This document shows positions 7,878 to 61,185 of a DNA stretch of 64,000 nucleotides, in pieces. Origin of the DNA: Escherichia coli. GTDB taxonomy: Bacteria; Pseudomonadota; Gammaproteobacteria; Enterobacterales; Enterobacteriaceae. Position 1 is the stretch's first letter; every line of letters starts with the position of its first letter. The stretch lies in the NCBI RefSeq assembly GCF_044324875.1, contig NZ_CP172185.1. One strand, written 5' to 3'. Both the position numbers and the translations under genes were made by a program. The notes beneath the pieces are model-generated. The model worked only from the letters and a program-made list of their open reading frames with translations, was not told where the DNA came from and searched no databases.

Positions 7878-8032
7878 GGGCACAACTCCTTGTTCGGGAA
7901 AGTTGTAAAGTACGTTATTTGAAAGGGCGAAGATCTGCAACGGAAAGATGATGACTTTGTTAAGACCATGCATAAAGTAAGGTCAATTACGCTAAAAATG
8001 ACATTTTCACTGATCCTGATCGTCTTGCCTTA

Positions 8033-16805: not shown

Positions 16806-18401
16806 TTACCCTCGTGCCGCCAGTGCGGTGACTCTGTCGTAAGCGGAACCACTGCGCAGTACCTCAAGAACGGTTTGCGCATTGGCTTGCAGATCTTCAT
16901 GGCCATGCAGGCGCATTAACATGGCGACATTCGCCGCGACGGCTGCTTCATGGGCGGCGTCGCCTTTACCTTGTAACAAGCGTGTTAAAATGTCACGGTT
17001 TTCTTCCGGTGTTCCGCCTGCCAGTTGCTCCTGGTGGTAGGGGGTCAGGCCAAAATCTTCAGCGGTCAATTGATAGCTCTTAATTTCGCCGTCATGCAGT
17101 TCGGCAACGATTGTCGGCGCGTGTAATGAAACTTCATCCATCCCGCCGCTGTGCACCACTGCCGCGCGTTGATACCCCAGCACGCGCAAGGTTTCGGCAA
17201 TCGGTAGCACCAGTTCCGGACTATAAACACCAATTAACGCCAGCGGCGGATGCGCCGGGTTAATCAATGGCCCCAGCACATTGAACAGGGTGCGGGTTTT
17301 CAGTTGCTGGCGAACCGGCATCGCGTGGCGGAATCCGGTGTGATATTTCGGCGCAAAGAGGAAACATACGCCTAACTCATCCAGCGCCTGGCGCGATTTA
17401 TCGGCGTTCATATCAAGATTAATACCGAATGCCGCCAGCAGATCCGACGAGCCGGATTTACTGGAGACGCTGCGGTTACCGTGTTTCGCCACTTTCAGCC
17501 CACAGGCCGCGGCGACAAACGCACTGGCGGTAGAAATATTGATGCTGTTGCTGCCGTCACCGCCAGTACCGACGATATCAGCAAACAGATAATCCGGGCG
17601 CGGGAACGGCGCTGCGTTTTCCAGTAGCGCGGTTGCTGCCCCGGCGATCTCGTTCGGGTGCTCACCGCGAATTTTCATGCTCACCAGCGCCGCCGCCAGT
17701 TGTTCCGGCTTCAGCTCGCCACGCACCACCGCTGAAAACAGCTGGTGACTTTCTTGTTGGCTAAGCGTCTGCGCCTGATACAGTTTTTCCAGAATCGGTT
17801 GCAGCGTGTTAGTCGGTTCCAGTTTCTGCTGCGCCCAGGCCAATGTTTGTTCCAGCAGGCGAGCGCCCTGGGTAGTAAGAATGGATTCCGGATGGAACTG
17901 GAATCCACAAACGCGATCTGCATCGTGACGCACCGCCATCACCATGCCATTAAAATGGGCGTTGATGGTTAAACCGGCCGGAATGTTACTGCCAACCAGC
18001 GAGTGATAACGCGCCACTGGCAGCGGGTTTGTTAATCCGGCAAACATCGCCTGACCGTCATGTTCAATGCTGGAGGCTTTACCGTGAAGAATTTCGCCCG
18101 CCTGACCGACATACCCCCCATAAGCTTCGACAATCGCCTGATGACCGAGGCAAATGCCAATAATTGGCAGCTTGCCGCGCAGGCGGGTGAGGAGTTCCGG
18201 CATACAACCGGCTTCGCTTGGCACACCGGGGCCAGGAGAAAGCATCAGCACCGGATTGCTCATTGTCGCCAGGCGTTCAATTAAGGTCTGCGCCGGAATA
18301 TGGTTGCGGTAAATCACCACGTTATGACCATTGCTGCGCAACTGATCTGCCAGGTTGTAAGTAAAAGAGTCGATATTATCGAGCAGCAGAATGTCAGCCA
18401 T
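16806..18401 (-). CDS. trpD: anthranilate synthase component II / anthranilate phosphoribosyltransferase
   Basis: 531-aa fusion of glutamine amidotransferase (GICLGHQ) and PRT domains. Confidence 0.97.
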
Positions 18402-19963
18402 CAGAAAGTCTCCTGTGCATGGTGCGCGGTGGCGATAGCGCGCAGTACAGCGCGGGCTTTATTTCGGGTTTCGTCGGCTTCCGACTGCGGAACAGAATCA
18501 AGGACTACGCCAGCACCGGCTTGCACGGTGGCGATACCGTTTTCCACCAGCGCCGAGCGGATCACAATGCAGGTGTCGAGATCGCCATGCGCGGTGAAAT
18601 AACCTACCGCGCCGCCGTAGCTGCCGCGGCGACGACCTTCCGCCTCGGCAATTAACTGCATAGCGCGTACTTTCGGTGCACCGCTTAACGTCCCCATATT
18701 CATACAGGCGCGGTAAGCGTGCAGGGCGTCGAGATCGTGGCGCAGCTCACCGACCACGCGGGAGACCAGGTGCATCACGTAAGAGTAACGGTCAACTTTG
18801 GTGAGATCGGCGACGTAGCGGCTGCCGGGGGTGCAAATGCGCGCCAGGTCATTACGGGCGAGATCCACCAGCATCAGATGTTCAGAAAGCTCTTTATGAT
18901 CGGTACGCATTTCCAGTTCGATGCGGCTGTCGAGGTCTCTGTCCAGCGAGCCATCGGCGCGACGACCGCGCGGGCGTGTTCCGGCAATCGGGTAGATCTC
19001 AATCTGGCGGCTGGTGGCGTCATACTTGAGCGAACTTTCCGGCGACGCGCCAAACAGGGTGAAATCATTATCCTGCATAAAAAACATGTACGGGCTGGGA
19101 TTACTCTTTTTCAGCACGTAATAGGCCGCCAGCGGTGACGGGCAGGGCAGAGAGAAACGGCGAGATGGTACGACCTGGAAAATTTCTCCGGCGCGAATCG
19201 CTTTTTGCAACAAACGCACTACGCCACCGAACTCTTCATCGCTCTGGTTACATTCACAACGCATATGCGGCACGGAAACCACCGGCAGCGGTGGCGCGGT
19301 TTCAGTCAGTTGCTGGCGAAGATCGTTCAGGCGAGCAGTGAGACGTTGTTTTTCTTCTTCATTCGGAGCAAACAGACTGGCCTGAATGCGGGTGCTTTTT
19401 TTCTGATGGTCAATCACCATCAGCGTTTCAGCGAGATAAAAACAGAAATCAGGGCAGTTATTTTCCGCTGACAGTTGCGGTAAATCTTCAAACCCCACCA
19501 CAAGGTCATAAGAGAACAGGCCGCCGAAGAACATTGCTTCTCGTTCTTCCTTCGGTACATGCAACAGATTCTGTAATAAGCGGAAAGCGTCAAAAACCGA
19601 AAGGGAGCATAAGCGGGCGTCTTCATCCAGCAGTGGACTGACAGGGGGGAAGCGCAGCACACGGCAGTTTGGTGATTGTTCATTTTCCACACCCGCAGGC
19701 AGGGCGTTATCCAGTAGTGCCAGCAGGGCTTCACCATTGCCGGAAAGTGCCTGAATTGTGACCGTGTCACCTAATGCTGTAATGCGCAGCGCACTGTCTA
19801 CCAGCAGCAGGCTTTTTAAATCATCTTTGCTGTCGATATCTGCGGATTCCAGCAGCAGCGTTGCTGGACGATTCCCACACAACTGGTGAAAAAGCGCAGT
19901 CGGGTTGTCGCGATAAGCGCCTTCGCAGGTTAGCAGTTCAAGAGTCGGTTTTTGTGTTTGCAT
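18401..19963 (-). CDS. trpE: anthranilate synthase component I
   Basis: 520-aa [28 protein letters not shown]... Confidence 0.97.
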
Positions 19964-19984
19964 TGTTATTCTCTAATTTTGTTC

Positions 19985-20012
19985 AAAAAAAAGCCCGCTC
20001 ATTAGGCGGGCT
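19985..20012 (-). terminator. trp attenuator (3:4 terminator hairpin + U tract)
   Basis: Minus strand reads AGCCCGCCTAATGAGCGGGCTTTTTTTT between trpL and trpE. Confidence 0.9.
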
Positions 20013-20054
20013 GGGTATCTGATTGCTTTACGCATGGTGAATACACTGCCCGTT

Positions 20055-20099
20055 TCAGGAAGTGCGCCACCAACCTTTCAGTACGAAAATTGCTTTCAT
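20055..20099 (-). CDS. trpL: trp operon leader peptide (14 aa, tandem Trp codons)
   Basis: ATG AAA GCA ATT TTC GTA CTG AAA GGT TGG TGG CGC ACT TCC TGA read on minus strand. Confidence 0.93.
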
Positions 20100-20119
20100 T
20101 GTCGATACCCTTTTTACGT

Positions 20120-20162
20120 GAACTTGCGTACTAGTTAACTAGTTCGATGATTAATTGTCAAC
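20120..20162 (-). promoter_or_regulatory. trp promoter and TrpR operator
   Basis: Minus strand TTGACA-attaatcatcgaactag-TTAACT with operator palindrome CGAACTAGTTAACTAGTACG overlapping the -10. Confidence 0.9.
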
Positions 20163-20236
20163 AGCTCATTTCAGAATATTTGCCAGAACCGTTATGATGT
20201 CGGCGCAAAAAACATTATCCAGAACGGGAGTGCGCC

Positions 20237-21118
20237 TTGAGCGACACGAATTACGCAGTGATTTACGACCTGCACAGCCATACCACAGCTTCCGATGGCT
20301 GCCTGACGCCAGAAGCATTGGTGCACCGTGCAGTCGAGATGCGCGTCGGCACCCTGGCGATCACCGACCATGACACCACAGCTGCAATCGCGCCAGCAAG
20401 AGAGGAAATTTCACGTTCGGGACTGGCGCTGAATCTTATTCCCGGCGTGGAAATTTCCACGGTCTGGGAAAATCATGAAATTCATATTGTCGGGCTGAAT
20501 ATTGATATTACTCATCCGCTAATGTGTGAGTTCCTCGCGCAGCAGACAGAACGGCGCAATCAGCGGGCGCAGCTGATTGCCGAAAGACTTGAAAAAGCGC
20601 AAATACCAGGTGCGCTGGAAGGCGCGCAACGACTGGCGCAGGGCGGTGCGGTGACGCGCGGTCATTTTGCGCGTTTCCTTGTGGAGTGCGGCAAAGCCAG
20701 TTCAATGGCGGATGTCTTTAAAAAATATCTGGCGCGCGGGAAAACCGGATACGTTCCGCCACAGTGGTGTACAATAGAACAAGCTATTGATGTCATTCAT
20801 CATTCTGGCGGTAAGGCGGTGCTAGCTCATCCTGGGCGGTACAATCTTAGTGCTAAATGGCTGAAAAGATTGGTTGCGCATTTTGCTGAACACCACGGCG
20901 ACGCGATGGAAGTCGCGCAGTGCCAGCAATCGCCCAATGAACGCACCCAGCTGGCGACACTTGCGCGTCAGCATCATTTATGGGCATCACAAGGATCTGA
21001 TTTTCATCAGCCATGCCCGTGGATCGAACTGGGTCGTAAACTCTGGCTGCCCGCAGGCGTTGAAGGCGTCTGGCAGCTATGGGAACAGCCGCAGAACACC
21101 ACAGAGAGGGAATTATGA
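20237..21118 (+). CDS. yciV: PHP-domain 5'-3' exoribonuclease (RNase AM; YciV/TrpH)
   Basis: 293 aa from TTG start; HSHT...DG and ITDHD PHP motifs. Confidence 0.9.
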   Translation: MSDTNYAVIYDLHSHTTASDGCLTPEALVHRAVEMRVGTLAITDHDTTAAIAPAREEISRSGLALNLIPGVEISTVWENHEIHIVGLNIDITHPLMCEFLAQQTERRNQRAQLIAERLEKAQIPGALEGAQRLAQGGAVTRGHFARFLVECGKASSMADVFKKYLARGKTGYVPPQWCTIEQAIDVIHHSGGKAVLAHPGRYNLSAKWLKRLVAHFAEHHGDAMEVAQCQQSPNERTQLATLARQHHLWASQGSDFHQPCPWIELGRKLWLPAGVEGVWQLWEQPQNTTEREL

Positions 21119-24744: not shown

Positions 24745-24763
24745 TTTAAGATAAGTATAAAAT

Positions 24764-24787
24764 AAAGGCCCTGCGGGGCCTTTTCTT
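24764..24787 (+). terminator. rluB intrinsic terminator
   Basis: AGGCCC-tgcg-GGGCCT hairpin followed by TTTTCTT 20 nt after rluB stop. Confidence 0.75.
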
Positions 24788-24913
24788 CATTTGAAGCATG
24801 ATAAATAGTCGCAGTATTTTAATTTAATTTCATACTTGCTTATGAATAATACCCGGAAATAGCCACATTACTATTTAATTATCTGAGATAAACTCAACGT
24901 CAAGAGGTGGGTT

Positions 24914-25936
24914 ATGATTAGATATAGTGGAATATTTCTATCGCTGTTAATGCTTTCAGGTTGTGCAACTGAAGCATTGAAAAACGAACAAGCTGAAACT
25001 GTTATTACTGCGGGTAACAAAGCAGTAGCGGCGAATGCAAGTTTCTTTAAACAATACTATGCTTCTCGTGAAAACTTCCTTGTTAATTTTTATGCGACTA
25101 ATCCGGATTGTGCACCTCGACCAGATTATGAGGTAGTTATTGAAAACAGTACCAGTGATGAGTCATTATGTCAGCAACCTGGAGATAAGCACAAAAAATC
25201 TCAAGAAGATCTTTTTATTACAAAGATAGTCGCTACTGAAAAAGAAAGATTGCTGGCTTCTATGGAAATCATTAGCAGTATGAGTTCTTATGTCGAACTT
25301 TTGAATGAGGATTTAGATGTTAAAGACAGCAAACAGTTCATATTGCTTAAACAAGCTCTGGATCACGCGAATAATGCGGGGGCACTTCTGGGCATCAATG
25401 ATGGTGGAACATTAACAAAATCTGCAGCAGCGGTTAAAGATTTAGTGGTTTATTTCAATGGGTTGTATAATACAAGGGTAAGCGCAGGGAATATAGGTAG
25501 TACGGTAAATAATCATTGGCAAAGAATAAAAAATGATCTAACTGATATACGAAACGATATCGCGACAAAAGGTAAACAAACTGGAAGAAATACCTTTGCG
25601 ACGGTACATAATAATCTCGTTTATTACAATGCCTCCTTAAAAAAAGGAGGAGGTAATGAATTTAAGACATTGAAGAGCAGACAAGAATTCCTGGCTGCGA
25701 TTATCAGTATTAATGAAACACGTCTTCGTGCAGCAGATCCAGCTATTCCAGCAATACAAGCACTGAACTCATTTCTTGACGAGGGGAATCACCTTAAGGA
25801 TTTATACACTAATAAAATACGCACAGCGGCTGAACAAAAAAGGCTAAATGAAATATTACGCGCACAGGTCATTAGTGGGTTAAAGGCGTCTGAGGGGCTG
25901 GCAAAACTACTTATTGCCAGCGGAATAATGTTATAG
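24914..25936 (+). CDS. predicted lipoprotein of unknown function (340 aa; AT-rich accessory gene absent from K-12 order)
   Basis: SD AAGAGGTG 6 nt before ATG; signal peptide MIRYSGIFLSLLMLSGC with lipobox L-S-G-C, +2 Ala; AT-rich codon usage; no family recognised. Confidence 0.75.
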   Translation: MIRYSGIFLSLLMLSGCATEALKNEQAETVITAGNKAVAANASFFKQYYASRENFLVNFYATNPDCAPRPDYEVVIENSTSDESLCQQPGDKHKKSQEDLFITKIVATEKERLLASMEIISSMSSYVELLNEDLDVKDSKQFILLKQALDHANNAGALLGINDGGTLTKSAAAVKDLVVYFNGLYNTRVSAGNIGSTVNNHWQRIKNDLTDIRNDIATKGKQTGRNTFATVHNNLVYYNASLKKGGGNEFKTLKSRQEFLAAIISINETRLRAADPAIPAIQALNSFLDEGNHLKDLYTNKIRTAAEQKRLNEILRAQVISGLKASEGLAKLLIASGIML

Positions 25937-25948
25937 GAGGGGCTTTTT

Positions 25949-26257
25949 ATGAACGATGTACAAAACCGTAGAATATTGGCATTACTTGATATGCTGTATA
26001 ATACTCTGGGCAACAAAACCACATGCAAGGTTTGTCATAAATATTTTATCCTTATCCTCACGGTGATGAACAATCTGACGATTAACTACGGTACTGAAAC
26101 TTCGCCAGAGTTAAGCGGAATCAGTTATGAAGATGCCAATGCGTTAATTACTGAACTGATATTATTTATTGAAGATGTTGACGCTGAGAATCATGAAGCA
26201 TATCCGGGACATTTGAATGAGATTAAACGGATTCTGAGTTTTGCTATTGCCGCTTGA
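25949..26257 (+). CDS. small hypothetical protein (102 aa) co-transcribed with upstream lipoprotein
   Basis: SD TAGGAGG overlaps stop of upstream ORF, ATG 12 nt downstream; no signal peptide; CKVCH motif, acidic C-terminal half; AT-rich. Confidence 0.65.
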   Translation: MNDVQNRRILALLDMLYNTLGNKTTCKVCHKYFILILTVMNNLTINYGTETSPELSGISYEDANALITELILFIEDVDAENHEAYPGHLNEIKRILSFAIAA

Positions 26258-26271
26258 ATATAATTATGATT

Positions 26272-26306
26272 AAAGCACCTCAAGAGGCGATCTTTTGAGG
26301 TGCTTT
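26272..26306. terminator. perfect 12-bp stem hairpin abutting btuR stop (bidirectional terminator candidate)
   Basis: AAAGCACCTCAA-gaggcgatctt-TTGAGGTGCTTT read directly; lies between the small ORF and convergent btuR. Confidence 0.65.
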
Positions 26307-26309
26307 CAC

Positions 26310-28959: not shown

Positions 28960-29211
28960 TTAATCAACCAGGTGATATTTTTCTGAAAGCACATGGGCCA
29001 GGTGTTTGAACATATTAAACACCGCGGTGCTTTTGGCTGTTGGCAATCCTTGTTCATCTAAAAAGTAGTCGCCGGTAAATACCAGCACGCCATTACGCTG
29101 CGTGACGCCGGTGGCTTCAATCCCTGCGAGCGTATCCTCATGCTCACGAATGATTTTGTTGGCCTCTTTCAACAGCGTTTCGCGGTCGATGGGTTGTGTC
29201 TCTTTGTTCAT
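28960..29211 (-). CDS. yciN: DUF2498 protein YciN
   Basis: 83-aa ORF in conserved position upstream of topA. Confidence 0.88.
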
Positions 29212-29590
29212 TATTTACTCCTTAAACAAGGACATTAGTCTACGCCAGGCATGGCTTGCAGACAAATATACCACGCTGGTGGCAAGAGCGCCTTACTGGC
29301 AACTTTGGATTTTGCATGCTAATAAAGTTGCGTATCGGATTTTATCAGGTACAGTGTGACGCTTTCGTCAATCTGGCAATAGATTTGCTTGACATTCGAC
29401 CAAAATTCCGTCGTGCTATAGCGCCTGTAGGCCAAGACCTGTTAACTCAGTCACCTGAATTTTCGTGAACAGAGTCACGACAAGGGGTTGATATCCGCAG
29501 AGAGCGAGTCCATATCGGTAACTCGTTGCCAGTGGAAGGTTTATCAACGTGCGACGCATTCCTGGAAGAATCAAATTAGGTAAGGTGAAT

Positions 29591-32188
29591 ATGGGTAAAG
29601 CTCTTGTCATCGTTGAGTCCCCGGCAAAAGCCAAAACGATCAACAAGTATCTGGGTAGTGACTACGTGGTGAAATCCAGCGTCGGTCACATCCGCGATTT
29701 GCCGACCAGTGGCTCAGCTGCCAAAAAGAGTGCCGACTCTACCTCCACCAAGACGGCTAAAAAGCCTAAAAAGGATGAACGTGGCGCTCTCGTCAACCGT
29801 ATGGGGGTTGACCCGTGGCACAATTGGGAGGCGCACTATGAAGTGTTGCCTGGTAAAGAGAAGGTCGTCTCTGAACTGAAACAACTGGCTGAAAAAGCCG
29901 ACCACATCTATCTCGCAACCGACCTTGACCGCGAAGGGGAAGCCATTGCATGGCACCTGCGGGAAGTGATTGGTGGTGATGATGCGCGCTATAGCCGAGT
30001 GGTGTTTAACGAAATTACTAAAAACGCGATCCGCCAGGCATTTAACAAACCAGGTGAGCTGAATATTGATCGTGTTAATGCCCAGCAGGCGCGTCGCTTT
30101 ATGGACCGCGTGGTGGGGTATATGGTTTCGCCGCTGCTGTGGAAAAAGATCGCTCGTGGTCTGTCTGCCGGTCGTGTGCAGTCGGTGGCGGTCCGCCTGG
30201 TGGTCGAGCGTGAGCGTGAAATTAAAGCGTTCGTACCGGAAGAGTTCTGGGAAGTCGATGCCAGCACGACCACGCCATCTGGTGATGCGTTGGCGTTGCA
30301 GGTGACTCATCAGAACGACAAACCGTTCCGCCCGGTCAACAAAGAACAAACTCAGGCTGCGGTAAGTCTGCTGGAAAAAGCGCGCTACAGCGTGCTGGAA
30401 CGTGAAGACAAACCGACAACCAGTAAACCTGGCGCTCCTTTTATTACCTCTACGCTGCAACAAGCTGCCAGCACCCGTCTTGGTTTTGGCGTGAAAAAAA
30501 CCATGATGATGGCGCAGCGTTTGTATGAAGCTGGCTATATAACATACATGCGTACCGACTCCACCAACCTGAGTCAGGACGCGGTAAATATGGTTCGCGG
30601 TTATATCAGCGATAATTTTGGTAAGAAATATCTGCCGGAAAGTCCGAATCAGTACGCCAGCAAAGAAAACTCACAGGAAGCGCACGAAGCGATTCGTCCT
30701 TCTGACGTCAATGTGATGGCGGAATCGCTGAAGGATATGGAAGCAGATGCGCAGAAACTGTACCAGTTAATCTGGCGTCAGTTCGTTGCCTGCCAGATGA
30801 CCCCAGCGAAATATGACTCTACGACGCTGACCGTTGGTGCGGGCGATTTCCGCCTGAAAGCACGCGGTCGTATTTTGCGCTTTGATGGCTGGACGAAAGT
30901 GATGCCTGCGCTGCGTAAAGGCGATGAAGATCGTATCTTACCGGCAGTCGATAAAGGCGATGCTTTAACACTCGTTGAACTGACACCAGCCCAGCACTTT
31001 ACCAAGCCGCCAGCGCGTTTCAGTGAAGCATCGTTGGTTAAAGAGCTGGAAAAACGCGGCATCGGTCGTCCGTCTACCTATGCGTCGATCATTTCGACCA
31101 TTCAGGATCGTGGCTATGTGCGAGTAGAAAATCGTCGTTTCTACGCGGAAAAAATGGGTGAAATTGTCACCGATCGCCTGGAAGAAAATTTCCGTGAGTT
31201 AATGAACTACGACTTTACCGCGCAGATGGAAAACAGCCTCGACCAGGTGGCAAATCACGAAGCAGAGTGGAAAGCTGTACTGGATCACTTCTTCTCGGAT
31301 TTCACCCAGCAGTTAGATAAAGCGGAAAAAGATCCGGAAGAGGGGGGGATGCGCCCGAACCAGATGGTTCTGACCAGCATCGACTGCCCGACCTGTGGTC
31401 GCAAAATGGGTATTCGCACAGCGAGCACCGGGGTATTCCTTGGCTGTTCCGGCTACGCTCTGCCACCGAAAGAGCGTTGCAAAACCACCATCAACCTGGT
31501 GCCGGAAAACGAAGTGCTGAACGTGCTGGAAGGTGAAGACGCTGAAACCAACGCGCTGCGCGCAAAACGTCGTTGCCCGAAATGCGGCACGGCGATGGAC
31601 AGCTATCTCATCGATCCGAAACGTAAGTTGCATGTCTGTGGTAATAACCCAACCTGCGACGGTTACGAGATCGAAGAGGGCGAATTCCGCATTAAAGGTT
31701 ATGACGGCCCGATCGTTGAGTGTGAAAAATGTGGCTCTGAAATGCACCTGAAAATGGGGCGTTTCGGTAAATACATGGCCTGCACCAACGAAGAGTGTAA
31801 AAACACACGTAAGATTTTACGTAACGGCGAAGTGGCACCACCGAAAGAAGATCCGGTGCCATTACCTGAGTTGCCGTGCGAAAAATCAGATGCTTATTTC
31901 GTGCTGCGTGACGGTGCTGCCGGTGTGTTCCTGGCGGCCAATACCTTCCCGAAATCGCGTGAAACACGTGCGCCACTGGTGGAAGAGCTTTATCGCTTCC
32001 GCGACCGTCTGCCGGAAAAACTGCGTTATCTGGCCGATGCGCCACAGCAGGATCCGGAAGGTAATAAGACCATGGTTCGCTTTAGCCGTAAAACCAAACA
32101 GCAATATGTCTCTTCGGAAAAAGACGGAAAGGCGACTGGCTGGTCAGCATTTTATGTTGATGGCAAATGGGTTGAAGGAAAAAAATAA
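29591..32188 (+). CDS. topA: DNA topoisomerase I
   Basis: 865 aa from ATG with AAGGTGA SD; TOPRIM start [17 protein letters not shown]; C-terminal zinc-ribbon CxxC repeats. Confidence 0.96.
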
Positions 32189-34002: not shown

Positions 34003-34115
34003 TTATCATCATTCTTATTACCCATTTTTAATGAATTAAAGGGCTTTTAATACACCGCAGCAATAACAGGTTGAGTTATCTCAACACAAAGTAATAACCG
34101 TTAAAGGTGTAGCCT

Positions 34116-34211
34116 ATGATCAACACAAATATGAAATATTGGTCCTGGATGGGCGCATTTTCTCTGTCGATGCTCTTCTGGGCCGAACTCCTCTGGATCA
34201 TTACTCACTGA
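34116..34211 (+). CDS. candidate 31-aa hydrophobic small protein (possibly the K-12 small protein in the yciX-acnA gap)
   Basis: SD AAAGGTG 6 nt before ATG; MINTNMKYWSWMGAFSLSMLFWAELLWIITH; intrinsic terminator 8 nt after stop. Confidence 0.45.
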   Translation: MINTNMKYWSWMGAFSLSMLFWAELLWIITH

Positions 34212-34218
34212 TCCCTGA

Positions 34219-34239
34219 CCCCGCTGCGGCGGGGTTTTC
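34219..34239 (+). terminator. intrinsic terminator after small ORF
   Basis: CCCCGC-tgcg-GCGGGG followed by TTTTC. Confidence 0.7.
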
Positions 34240-34374
34240 ATTTGCTTTGCCACAAGGTTTCTCCTCTTTTATCAATTTGGGTTGTTATCAAATCGTTACG
34301 CGATGTTTGTGTTATCTTTAATATTCACCCTGAAGAGAATCAGGGCTTCGCAACCCTGTCATTAAGGAGGAGCT

Positions 34375-61036: not shown

Positions 61037-61185
61037 TCTTTTTGTTCTGTAAGCCGGGTAAGCGCAATGCGCCCGGCAATCTATAAAGAATGTCGCCAGA
61101 AATAAACGGGCATACGGCCCGGGGATCTCTGCGCCCTGACGTTCACAAACTGCATATATCTGATAGACGTGAAACAGGAGTCATA

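Follow-up and report, generated by a model that had tools for sequence, protein, structure and literature searches.

The segment at positions 19985–20162 of the 64,000-nucleotide stretch of Escherichia coli DNA analyzed here (hereafter, the window) can be regarded, with very little room for doubt, as the chromosomal trp promoter-operator-leader-attenuator of E. coli, controlling trpEDCBA at both initiation and elongation. The whole element is already known and fully explained, and it reveals nothing new about the biology of attenuation. Its significance in this context is that a lineage diverged by about 2% from strain K-12 still keeps the canonical trp control region unchanged, and that the region is useful as an anchor that establishes both strand and gene order for the window. 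A preliminary description of this DNA had proposed a full promoter, operator, leader, and attenuator on the minus strand between these positions, and each of the elements that it listed was recovered in place.

The promoter reads on the minus strand. A −35 hexamer with the perfect consensus TTGACA, read directly from the sequence, occupies positions 20156–20161, one base downstream of the edge of the region (20162), and the −10 hexamer, TTAACT, which is conserved across genera, lies at 20133–20138. They are separated by 17 nt, and both the hexamers and their spacing are the same as in K-12. The −10 hexamer is located inside a palindrome, CGAACTAGTTAACTAGTACG (20127–20146, positions −21 to −2), in which 18 of the 20 positions are self-complementary, the central 14 bp form a perfect palindrome, and the ACTAG half-sites are present. 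The operator 18-mer occurs a single time in the window, where 0.02 matches with up to three mismatches would be expected. Based on the established knowledge of K-12, this palindrome would be the TrpR binding site. The transcription start was placed by identity with K-12 at the A of AAGTTCACG (20125, minus strand), a position that rests on the published K-12 start site; the distance from this predicted +1 to the trpE ATG is 162 nt.

The trp promoter was missed by a generic sigma-70 scan of the window, whose rule requires a −10 hexamer with at least four of six matches and an A at position 2; TTAACT and TATAAT agree at no more than three of six positions. This reflects a limit of the scan and not of the promoter; the missed call was rejected as counter-evidence, given that the sequence is that of the experimentally defined K-12 promoter.

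Downstream of the start site, a Shine-Dalgarno sequence, AAGGG (20108–20112, minus strand), is read 8 nt before the ATG of trpL. This gene spans 20055–20099 on the minus strand (+27 to +71), from the ATG at 20099 to the TGA at 20055, and comprises 14 sense codons plus the stop codon. Codons 10 and 11 are the tandem Trp codons TGG-TGG (20067–20072; +54 to +59), which constitute the sensing site. trpL is a translatable short ORF with a ribosome-binding site and a Trp pair near its end. In the RefSeq annotation, the identical sequence is labeled 'trpL: trp operon leader peptide' and 'Trp leader region'.

The remainder of the leader contains the segments of the attenuator, all on the minus strand. 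In the minimum-energy fold, segment 1 (20056–20072; +54 to +70) makes up the 5′ side of the 1:2 pause or anti-antiterminator hairpin. Segment 2 (20035–20052; +74 to +91) can pair with either segment 1 or segment 3, and segment 3 (20005–20019; +107 to +121) is the partner of segment 2 in the antiterminator or of segment 4 in the terminator. The 3:4 intrinsic terminator hairpin, AGCCCGCCTAATGAGCGGGCT (19992–20012; +114 to +134), was identified both by a terminator scan and from the Rfam structure; according to the scan, its stem has seven pairs, six of them G-C, and is followed by a T run. This run, T8 (19985–19992; +134 to +141), is the attenuator release site, and its first T doubles as the last paired base of the stem. 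When the whole window was scanned with Rfam, the Trp_leader family (RF00513) matched at 20078–19985 on the minus strand over model positions 1–100 of 100, with 93.1 bits (gathering score 41) and E = 1.1e-18; it was the sole leader family found in the window.

The 141-nt leader folds at −46.9 kcal/mol, compared with −33.5 ± 3.6 kcal/mol for shuffled sequences (z = −3.7), and none of 200 shuffles folded as well. In isolation, the 1:2, 2:3, and 3:4 hairpins reached −17.5, −15.6, and −14.0 kcal/mol, respectively. The CGGGC sequence at +74 to +78 has two alternative partners, +67 to +70 in the 1:2 hairpin or the GCCCG at +115 to +119 in the 2:3 hairpin, and this same GCCCG is also part of the 5′ arm of the terminator. 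In constrained folds, the 1:2, 2:3, and 3:4 alternatives were mutually exclusive by virtue of shared nucleotides and dependent on the position of the ribosome, which is a thermodynamic prediction only. When the unmasked transcript was allowed to grow, 1:2 was predicted to form first and 3:4 next. Masking nucleotides 1–71, as if the ribosome had stalled on the tandem Trp codons, made 2:3 the minimum-energy state at transcript lengths of 119–132, while masking nucleotides 1–84, corresponding to a ribosome at the stop codon, made 1:2 and 2:3 impossible and left 3:4 as the only hairpin that forms. The attenuation logic was thus reproduced in both the constrained and the growing-transcript folds, and the three outcomes are the textbook ones.

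The equilibrium fold of the full leader with segment 1 masked did not yield the 2:3 pairing, which was obtained in the growing-transcript folds. With segment 1 masked in the full 141-nt leader, the terminator was favored at equilibrium (−20.3 kcal/mol versus −16.4 kcal/mol with 2:3 forced), and 2:3 was overtaken by 3:4 only once the complete segment 4 had emerged. Since the terminator wins at equilibrium under this condition, antitermination would have to be kinetic; the folding model predicts that it operates by kinetic pre-emption and not by equilibrium preference, which agrees with the classical model.

From these elements, control of trpEDCBA would be exerted at two levels; in K-12, about 70-fold control is expected from repression and 8–10-fold from attenuation. 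At initiation, tryptophan-bound TrpR would occupy the operator over the −10 hexamer and block the sigma-70 promoter. At elongation, the 141-nt leader would direct the synthesis of a 14-residue peptide with an adjacent pair of Trp codons. When charged tRNA-Trp is plentiful, the ribosome would reach the UGA and cover segment 2, allowing the GC-rich 3:4 hairpin to form before U8, and the RNA polymerase would terminate. When charged tRNA-Trp is scarce, the ribosome would stall on UGG-UGG, covering segment 1, so that 2:3 could pair once segment 3 emerges, pre-empt the terminator, and permit readthrough into trpE. In a transcript that is not translated, both 1:2 and 3:4 would form, and termination is expected. 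Knowledge of K-12 is the basis on which TrpR binding, the start of transcription, pausing at 1:2, and the response in vivo are proposed; likewise, we infer tryptophan-dependent termination versus readthrough from the identity with the characterized K-12 element. The trpR gene is absent from the 64-kb window; in K-12, trpR sits far from the trp locus.

The surroundings of the region are those of the chromosomal operon. The T run ends 21 nt before the ATG of trpE, the first structural gene (520 aa; 18401–19963, minus strand, ATG at 19963), which is collinear with K-12. The products TrpE, D, C, B, and A have the K-12 lengths of 520, 531, 453, 397, and 268 aa, and their genes are intact. On the other side, upstream of trp, the plus strand carries rnm (RNase AM, formerly trpH), with its TTG start at 20237, followed by yciO and yciQ. 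Positions 19941–20253 of the window (313 bp) are 100% identical to K-12 MG1655 (NC_000913.3). On the rnm side, the identity stops at a single base in the 5′ end of the gene (20254); on the trpE side, it stops at 19940, and the trpE changes from there downstream are of the synonymous type. With respect to the K-12 trp control region (trpL, b1265), we found no difference in the element, its distance to trpE, the operon, or the neighboring genes. Alignment to the K-12 leader revealed no substitutions in the Trp codons or in the terminator stem. The characterization of the region as textbook and intact was borne out by the base-for-base identity with K-12, the Rfam match, the RefSeq annotation of trpL, and the intact trpEDCBA downstream; its use as a strand anchor also held, given that trp reads from the minus strand and has the orientation seen in K-12.

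The entire window is collinear with K-12 1,302,990–1,365,557 (oppB to puuB), with 97.5–98.1% identity and 1,379 differences. The 313-bp block is only about the fifteenth longest block free of differences in the window; the conservation of the control region with respect to K-12 is strong, not exceptional.

The 178-bp region was present in 5,421 of 5,426 complete E. coli genomes, 4,985 of which carried it with at least 99% identity. The exact allele found here is the commonest one in E. coli, with a frequency of roughly 55–60% in a spread sample of 40 genomes. In five variant E. coli genomes that we inspected, the changes were located in the −35/−10 spacer, in the operator, at +14, and in trpL codon 9. 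The codon 9 variant is GGT to GCT, which replaces Gly by Ala (G9A), and the point changes in the operator are ACT to ACC in Z142-6 and A to G in 2014C-3599. No changes were detected in these five genomes between +54 and +141. At every site that varies among them, the window has the canonical version. Natural variation in E. coli, as sampled by these five genomes, hits the promoter and the operator and spares the attenuator. In one of the five, E. coli Z1323HEC0477 (locus L051, 31–216), the trp operator contains a tandem duplication of 8 bp, AACTAGTT, and the same duplication is present in Citrobacter amalonaticus (L021), which is unrelated to this E. coli strain. The duplication generates an extended operator and a second −10-like TTAACT.

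Only a few bases separate the allele in the window from the leaders of E. albertii, E. whittamii, and Escherichia sp. MOD1; Shigella was not in the collection searched. As judged from these sequences, the leader alone would fix the strand and the genus Escherichia, not the species. Thus, of the species assignment that the preliminary description had drawn from this region, the genus stands on the leader itself, whereas the species, with near relatives only a few bases away, needs the collinearity of the 64 kb. The assignment to E. coli is made because the whole window is collinear with K-12 at 97.5–98% identity. When 24 kb (positions 8000–32000) were compared with the 5,426 complete E. coli genomes, the best match was strain MEW (ivory gull), at 99.0%, and only three complete E. 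coli records reached 99% over this length. Because of this, the source is an E. coli lineage that is uncommon among complete genomes.

To compare the leader with that of other bacteria, an exact 18-mer from segment 1 was searched in contigs representing one genome per species, which yielded 42 loci. Twelve of them, in unrelated taxa (Streptomyces, Myxococcus, MAGs), were chance matches and were discarded; about nine such matches were expected, as estimated from the pattern length and the collection size. The other 30 belong to the Enterobacterales and include Citrobacter, Enterobacter, Leclercia, Pectobacterium, Erwinia, and Affinibrenneria, as well as a MAG labeled Raoultella, E. albertii, E. 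whittamii, and Escherichia sp. All 30 leaders have a GC hairpin with a T run. In all of them the ORF ends in GWWRTS, which is so by construction given that the 18-mer encodes these residues; for the same reason, having been used for the selection, segment 1 is invariant in this set.

Among the 24 distinct leaders, the inner 1:2 helix was paired in 97% of cases, 3:4 in 93%, and 2:3 in 87%; in slid controls, in which the partners were shifted by one to three columns, pairing was 25–49% overall and 25–38% for 2:3. The outer six pairs of 1:2 (+54–59 with +86–91) held in just 51% of the cells. Covariation was weak, with changes on both sides in only two or three pairs, because the helices are nearly invariant. 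The maintenance of the helices across these leaders therefore represents conservation more than covariation. Upstream, the alignment of 19 Enterobacterales promoters showed that TTGAC, the first five bases of the −35 hexamer, is conserved, and that AACTAGTTAACTAGTACG is likewise retained in genera as far apart as Escherichia, Pectobacterium, and Erwinia, with divergence in the spacer and in the bases upstream. This pattern is a footprint of the −35 hexamer and of the operator with its −10.

The Enterobacterales leaders therefore share with the window the tandem Trp codons, the inner 1:2 helix, the CGGGC/GCCCG core of 2:3, the GCCCGC...GCGGGC terminator with its T run, and the AACTAGTTAACTAGTACG operator. 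They differ from it in the N-terminal part and the length of the peptide (14–23 aa), in the spacer between segments 2 and 3, and in the terminator loop. In Pectobacterium and Affinibrenneria the leader peptide runs past RTS, and in C. amalonaticus half of the operator is duplicated.

Other amino acid biosynthetic operons of E. coli are governed in a comparable manner. In the his, leu, thr, ilv, and pheA leaders, a short ORF with many cognate codons is combined with alternative hairpins and an intrinsic terminator. These attenuators use the same mechanism as the trp leader; in contrast to it, they have other regulatory codons and no TrpR-type operator. A more distant parallel is trpL of Sinorhizobium meliloti, a ribosome-dependent trp attenuator from which an RNA, rnTrpL, is released that has trans-acting targets (PMC12612679). 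Its differences from the window are considerable: S. meliloti has no TrpR, its trp genes form three separate operons, the released RNA measures 110 nt, and the targets are others. Furthermore, S. meliloti trpL has no sequence relationship to the element in the window.

This parallel bears on a possible additional role of the leader, which is not a true rival of its function in cis. As stated in a 2025 review (PMC12612679) that cites Li et al. 2021, the terminated 140-nt leader of E. coli is an Hfq-dependent rnTrpL that acts on the dnaA, sanA, and mhpC mRNAs. If the leader RNA of about 140 nt also worked in trans as this Hfq-dependent sRNA in the source strain, trpL would be a dual-function RNA, and its pairing with other transcripts would link the status of tryptophan or of translation to other pathways. 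The leader in the window is the K-12 leader, so any such activity would carry over, and the absence of changes between +54 and +141 in the five variant genomes is also in line with it. However, the conservation of this interval is equally explained by the three overlapping helices and the coding sequence. Weighing these points, we lean somewhat against the additional role, while considering it a serious possibility.

A second proposal concerns the intergenic region upstream of trp. A plus-strand sigma-70-like site, with TTCAGA and TATGAT separated by 17 nt, is located at 20170–20198, back to back with the trp −35 hexamer, with 38 nt between its end and the TTG start of rnm (20237). This site may be the divergent rnm promoter. 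The 313-bp block identical to K-12 also spans this site and the TTG start. It could be imagined that the two divergent promoters are coupled, such that TrpR or RNA polymerase at the trp promoter tunes rnm-yciO-yciQ and the trans role of the leader RNA adds constraint on +54 to +141; we regard this combined scheme as improbable.

Returning to the control of trpEDCBA by the promoter-operator-leader-attenuator, the element could look intact and nevertheless be decoupled in this strain, either by the loss of TrpR or by an altered behavior of tRNA-Trp or the ribosome. The lineage is poorly represented among complete genomes, as reflected in its best 24-kb match of 99.0%, and trpR lies outside the window, both of which would leave room for such a scenario. 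In contrast, the 313 bp carry not a single substitution although the background divergence is about 2.2%, and all five trp genes are intact, which argues for continuing purifying selection on a working system and makes decoupling very improbable. An engineered or plasmid-borne trp promoter cassette, of the kind used in expression vectors, is the least credible origin, practically negligible: although plasmids account for 6 of the 5,428 matches in E. coli assemblies, all 64 kb of the window follow the order of the K-12 chromosome, the region lies between rnm-yciO-yciQ on its upstream side and trpEDCBA on its downstream side, and no vector sequence flanks it, so a plasmid or vector origin was rejected on chromosomal synteny.

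Some other features of the window, apart from the trp region, were recorded during the comparison with K-12. Between rluB and btuR, there is a 1,564-bp insertion with respect to K-12 (24746–26309) of low GC content (36–39%). It contains two plus-strand ORFs, one at 24914–25936 encoding 340 aa with a lipoprotein-like N-terminus that ends in LSGC, and a second at 25949–26257 encoding 102 aa; neither had a match in Pfam, PADLOC, or NCBIfam searches. The insertion is present at full length in 216 of the 5,426 complete E. coli genomes, in which its genes are annotated as hypothetical proteins. In the cysB-acnA spacer, a full-length Rfam match to the enterobacterial sRNA STnc180 was found on the plus strand (34043–34245; 201.8 bits versus a gathering score of 50). 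It overlaps ymiC, an annotated gene for a small protein, and corresponds to K-12 1,335,500–1,335,702. At about 61082–61085, the window lacks approximately 120 bp of the K-12 puuR-puuC spacer (1,362,518–1,362,638), a stretch that is probably a repetitive extragenic element present only in K-12. Finally, of the aligned blocks without any difference from K-12, the longest in the window spans 1,001 bp (28973–29973; K-12 about 1,330,430–1,331,430) and includes yciN and the start of topA; it could result from strong constraint or from recent recombination.
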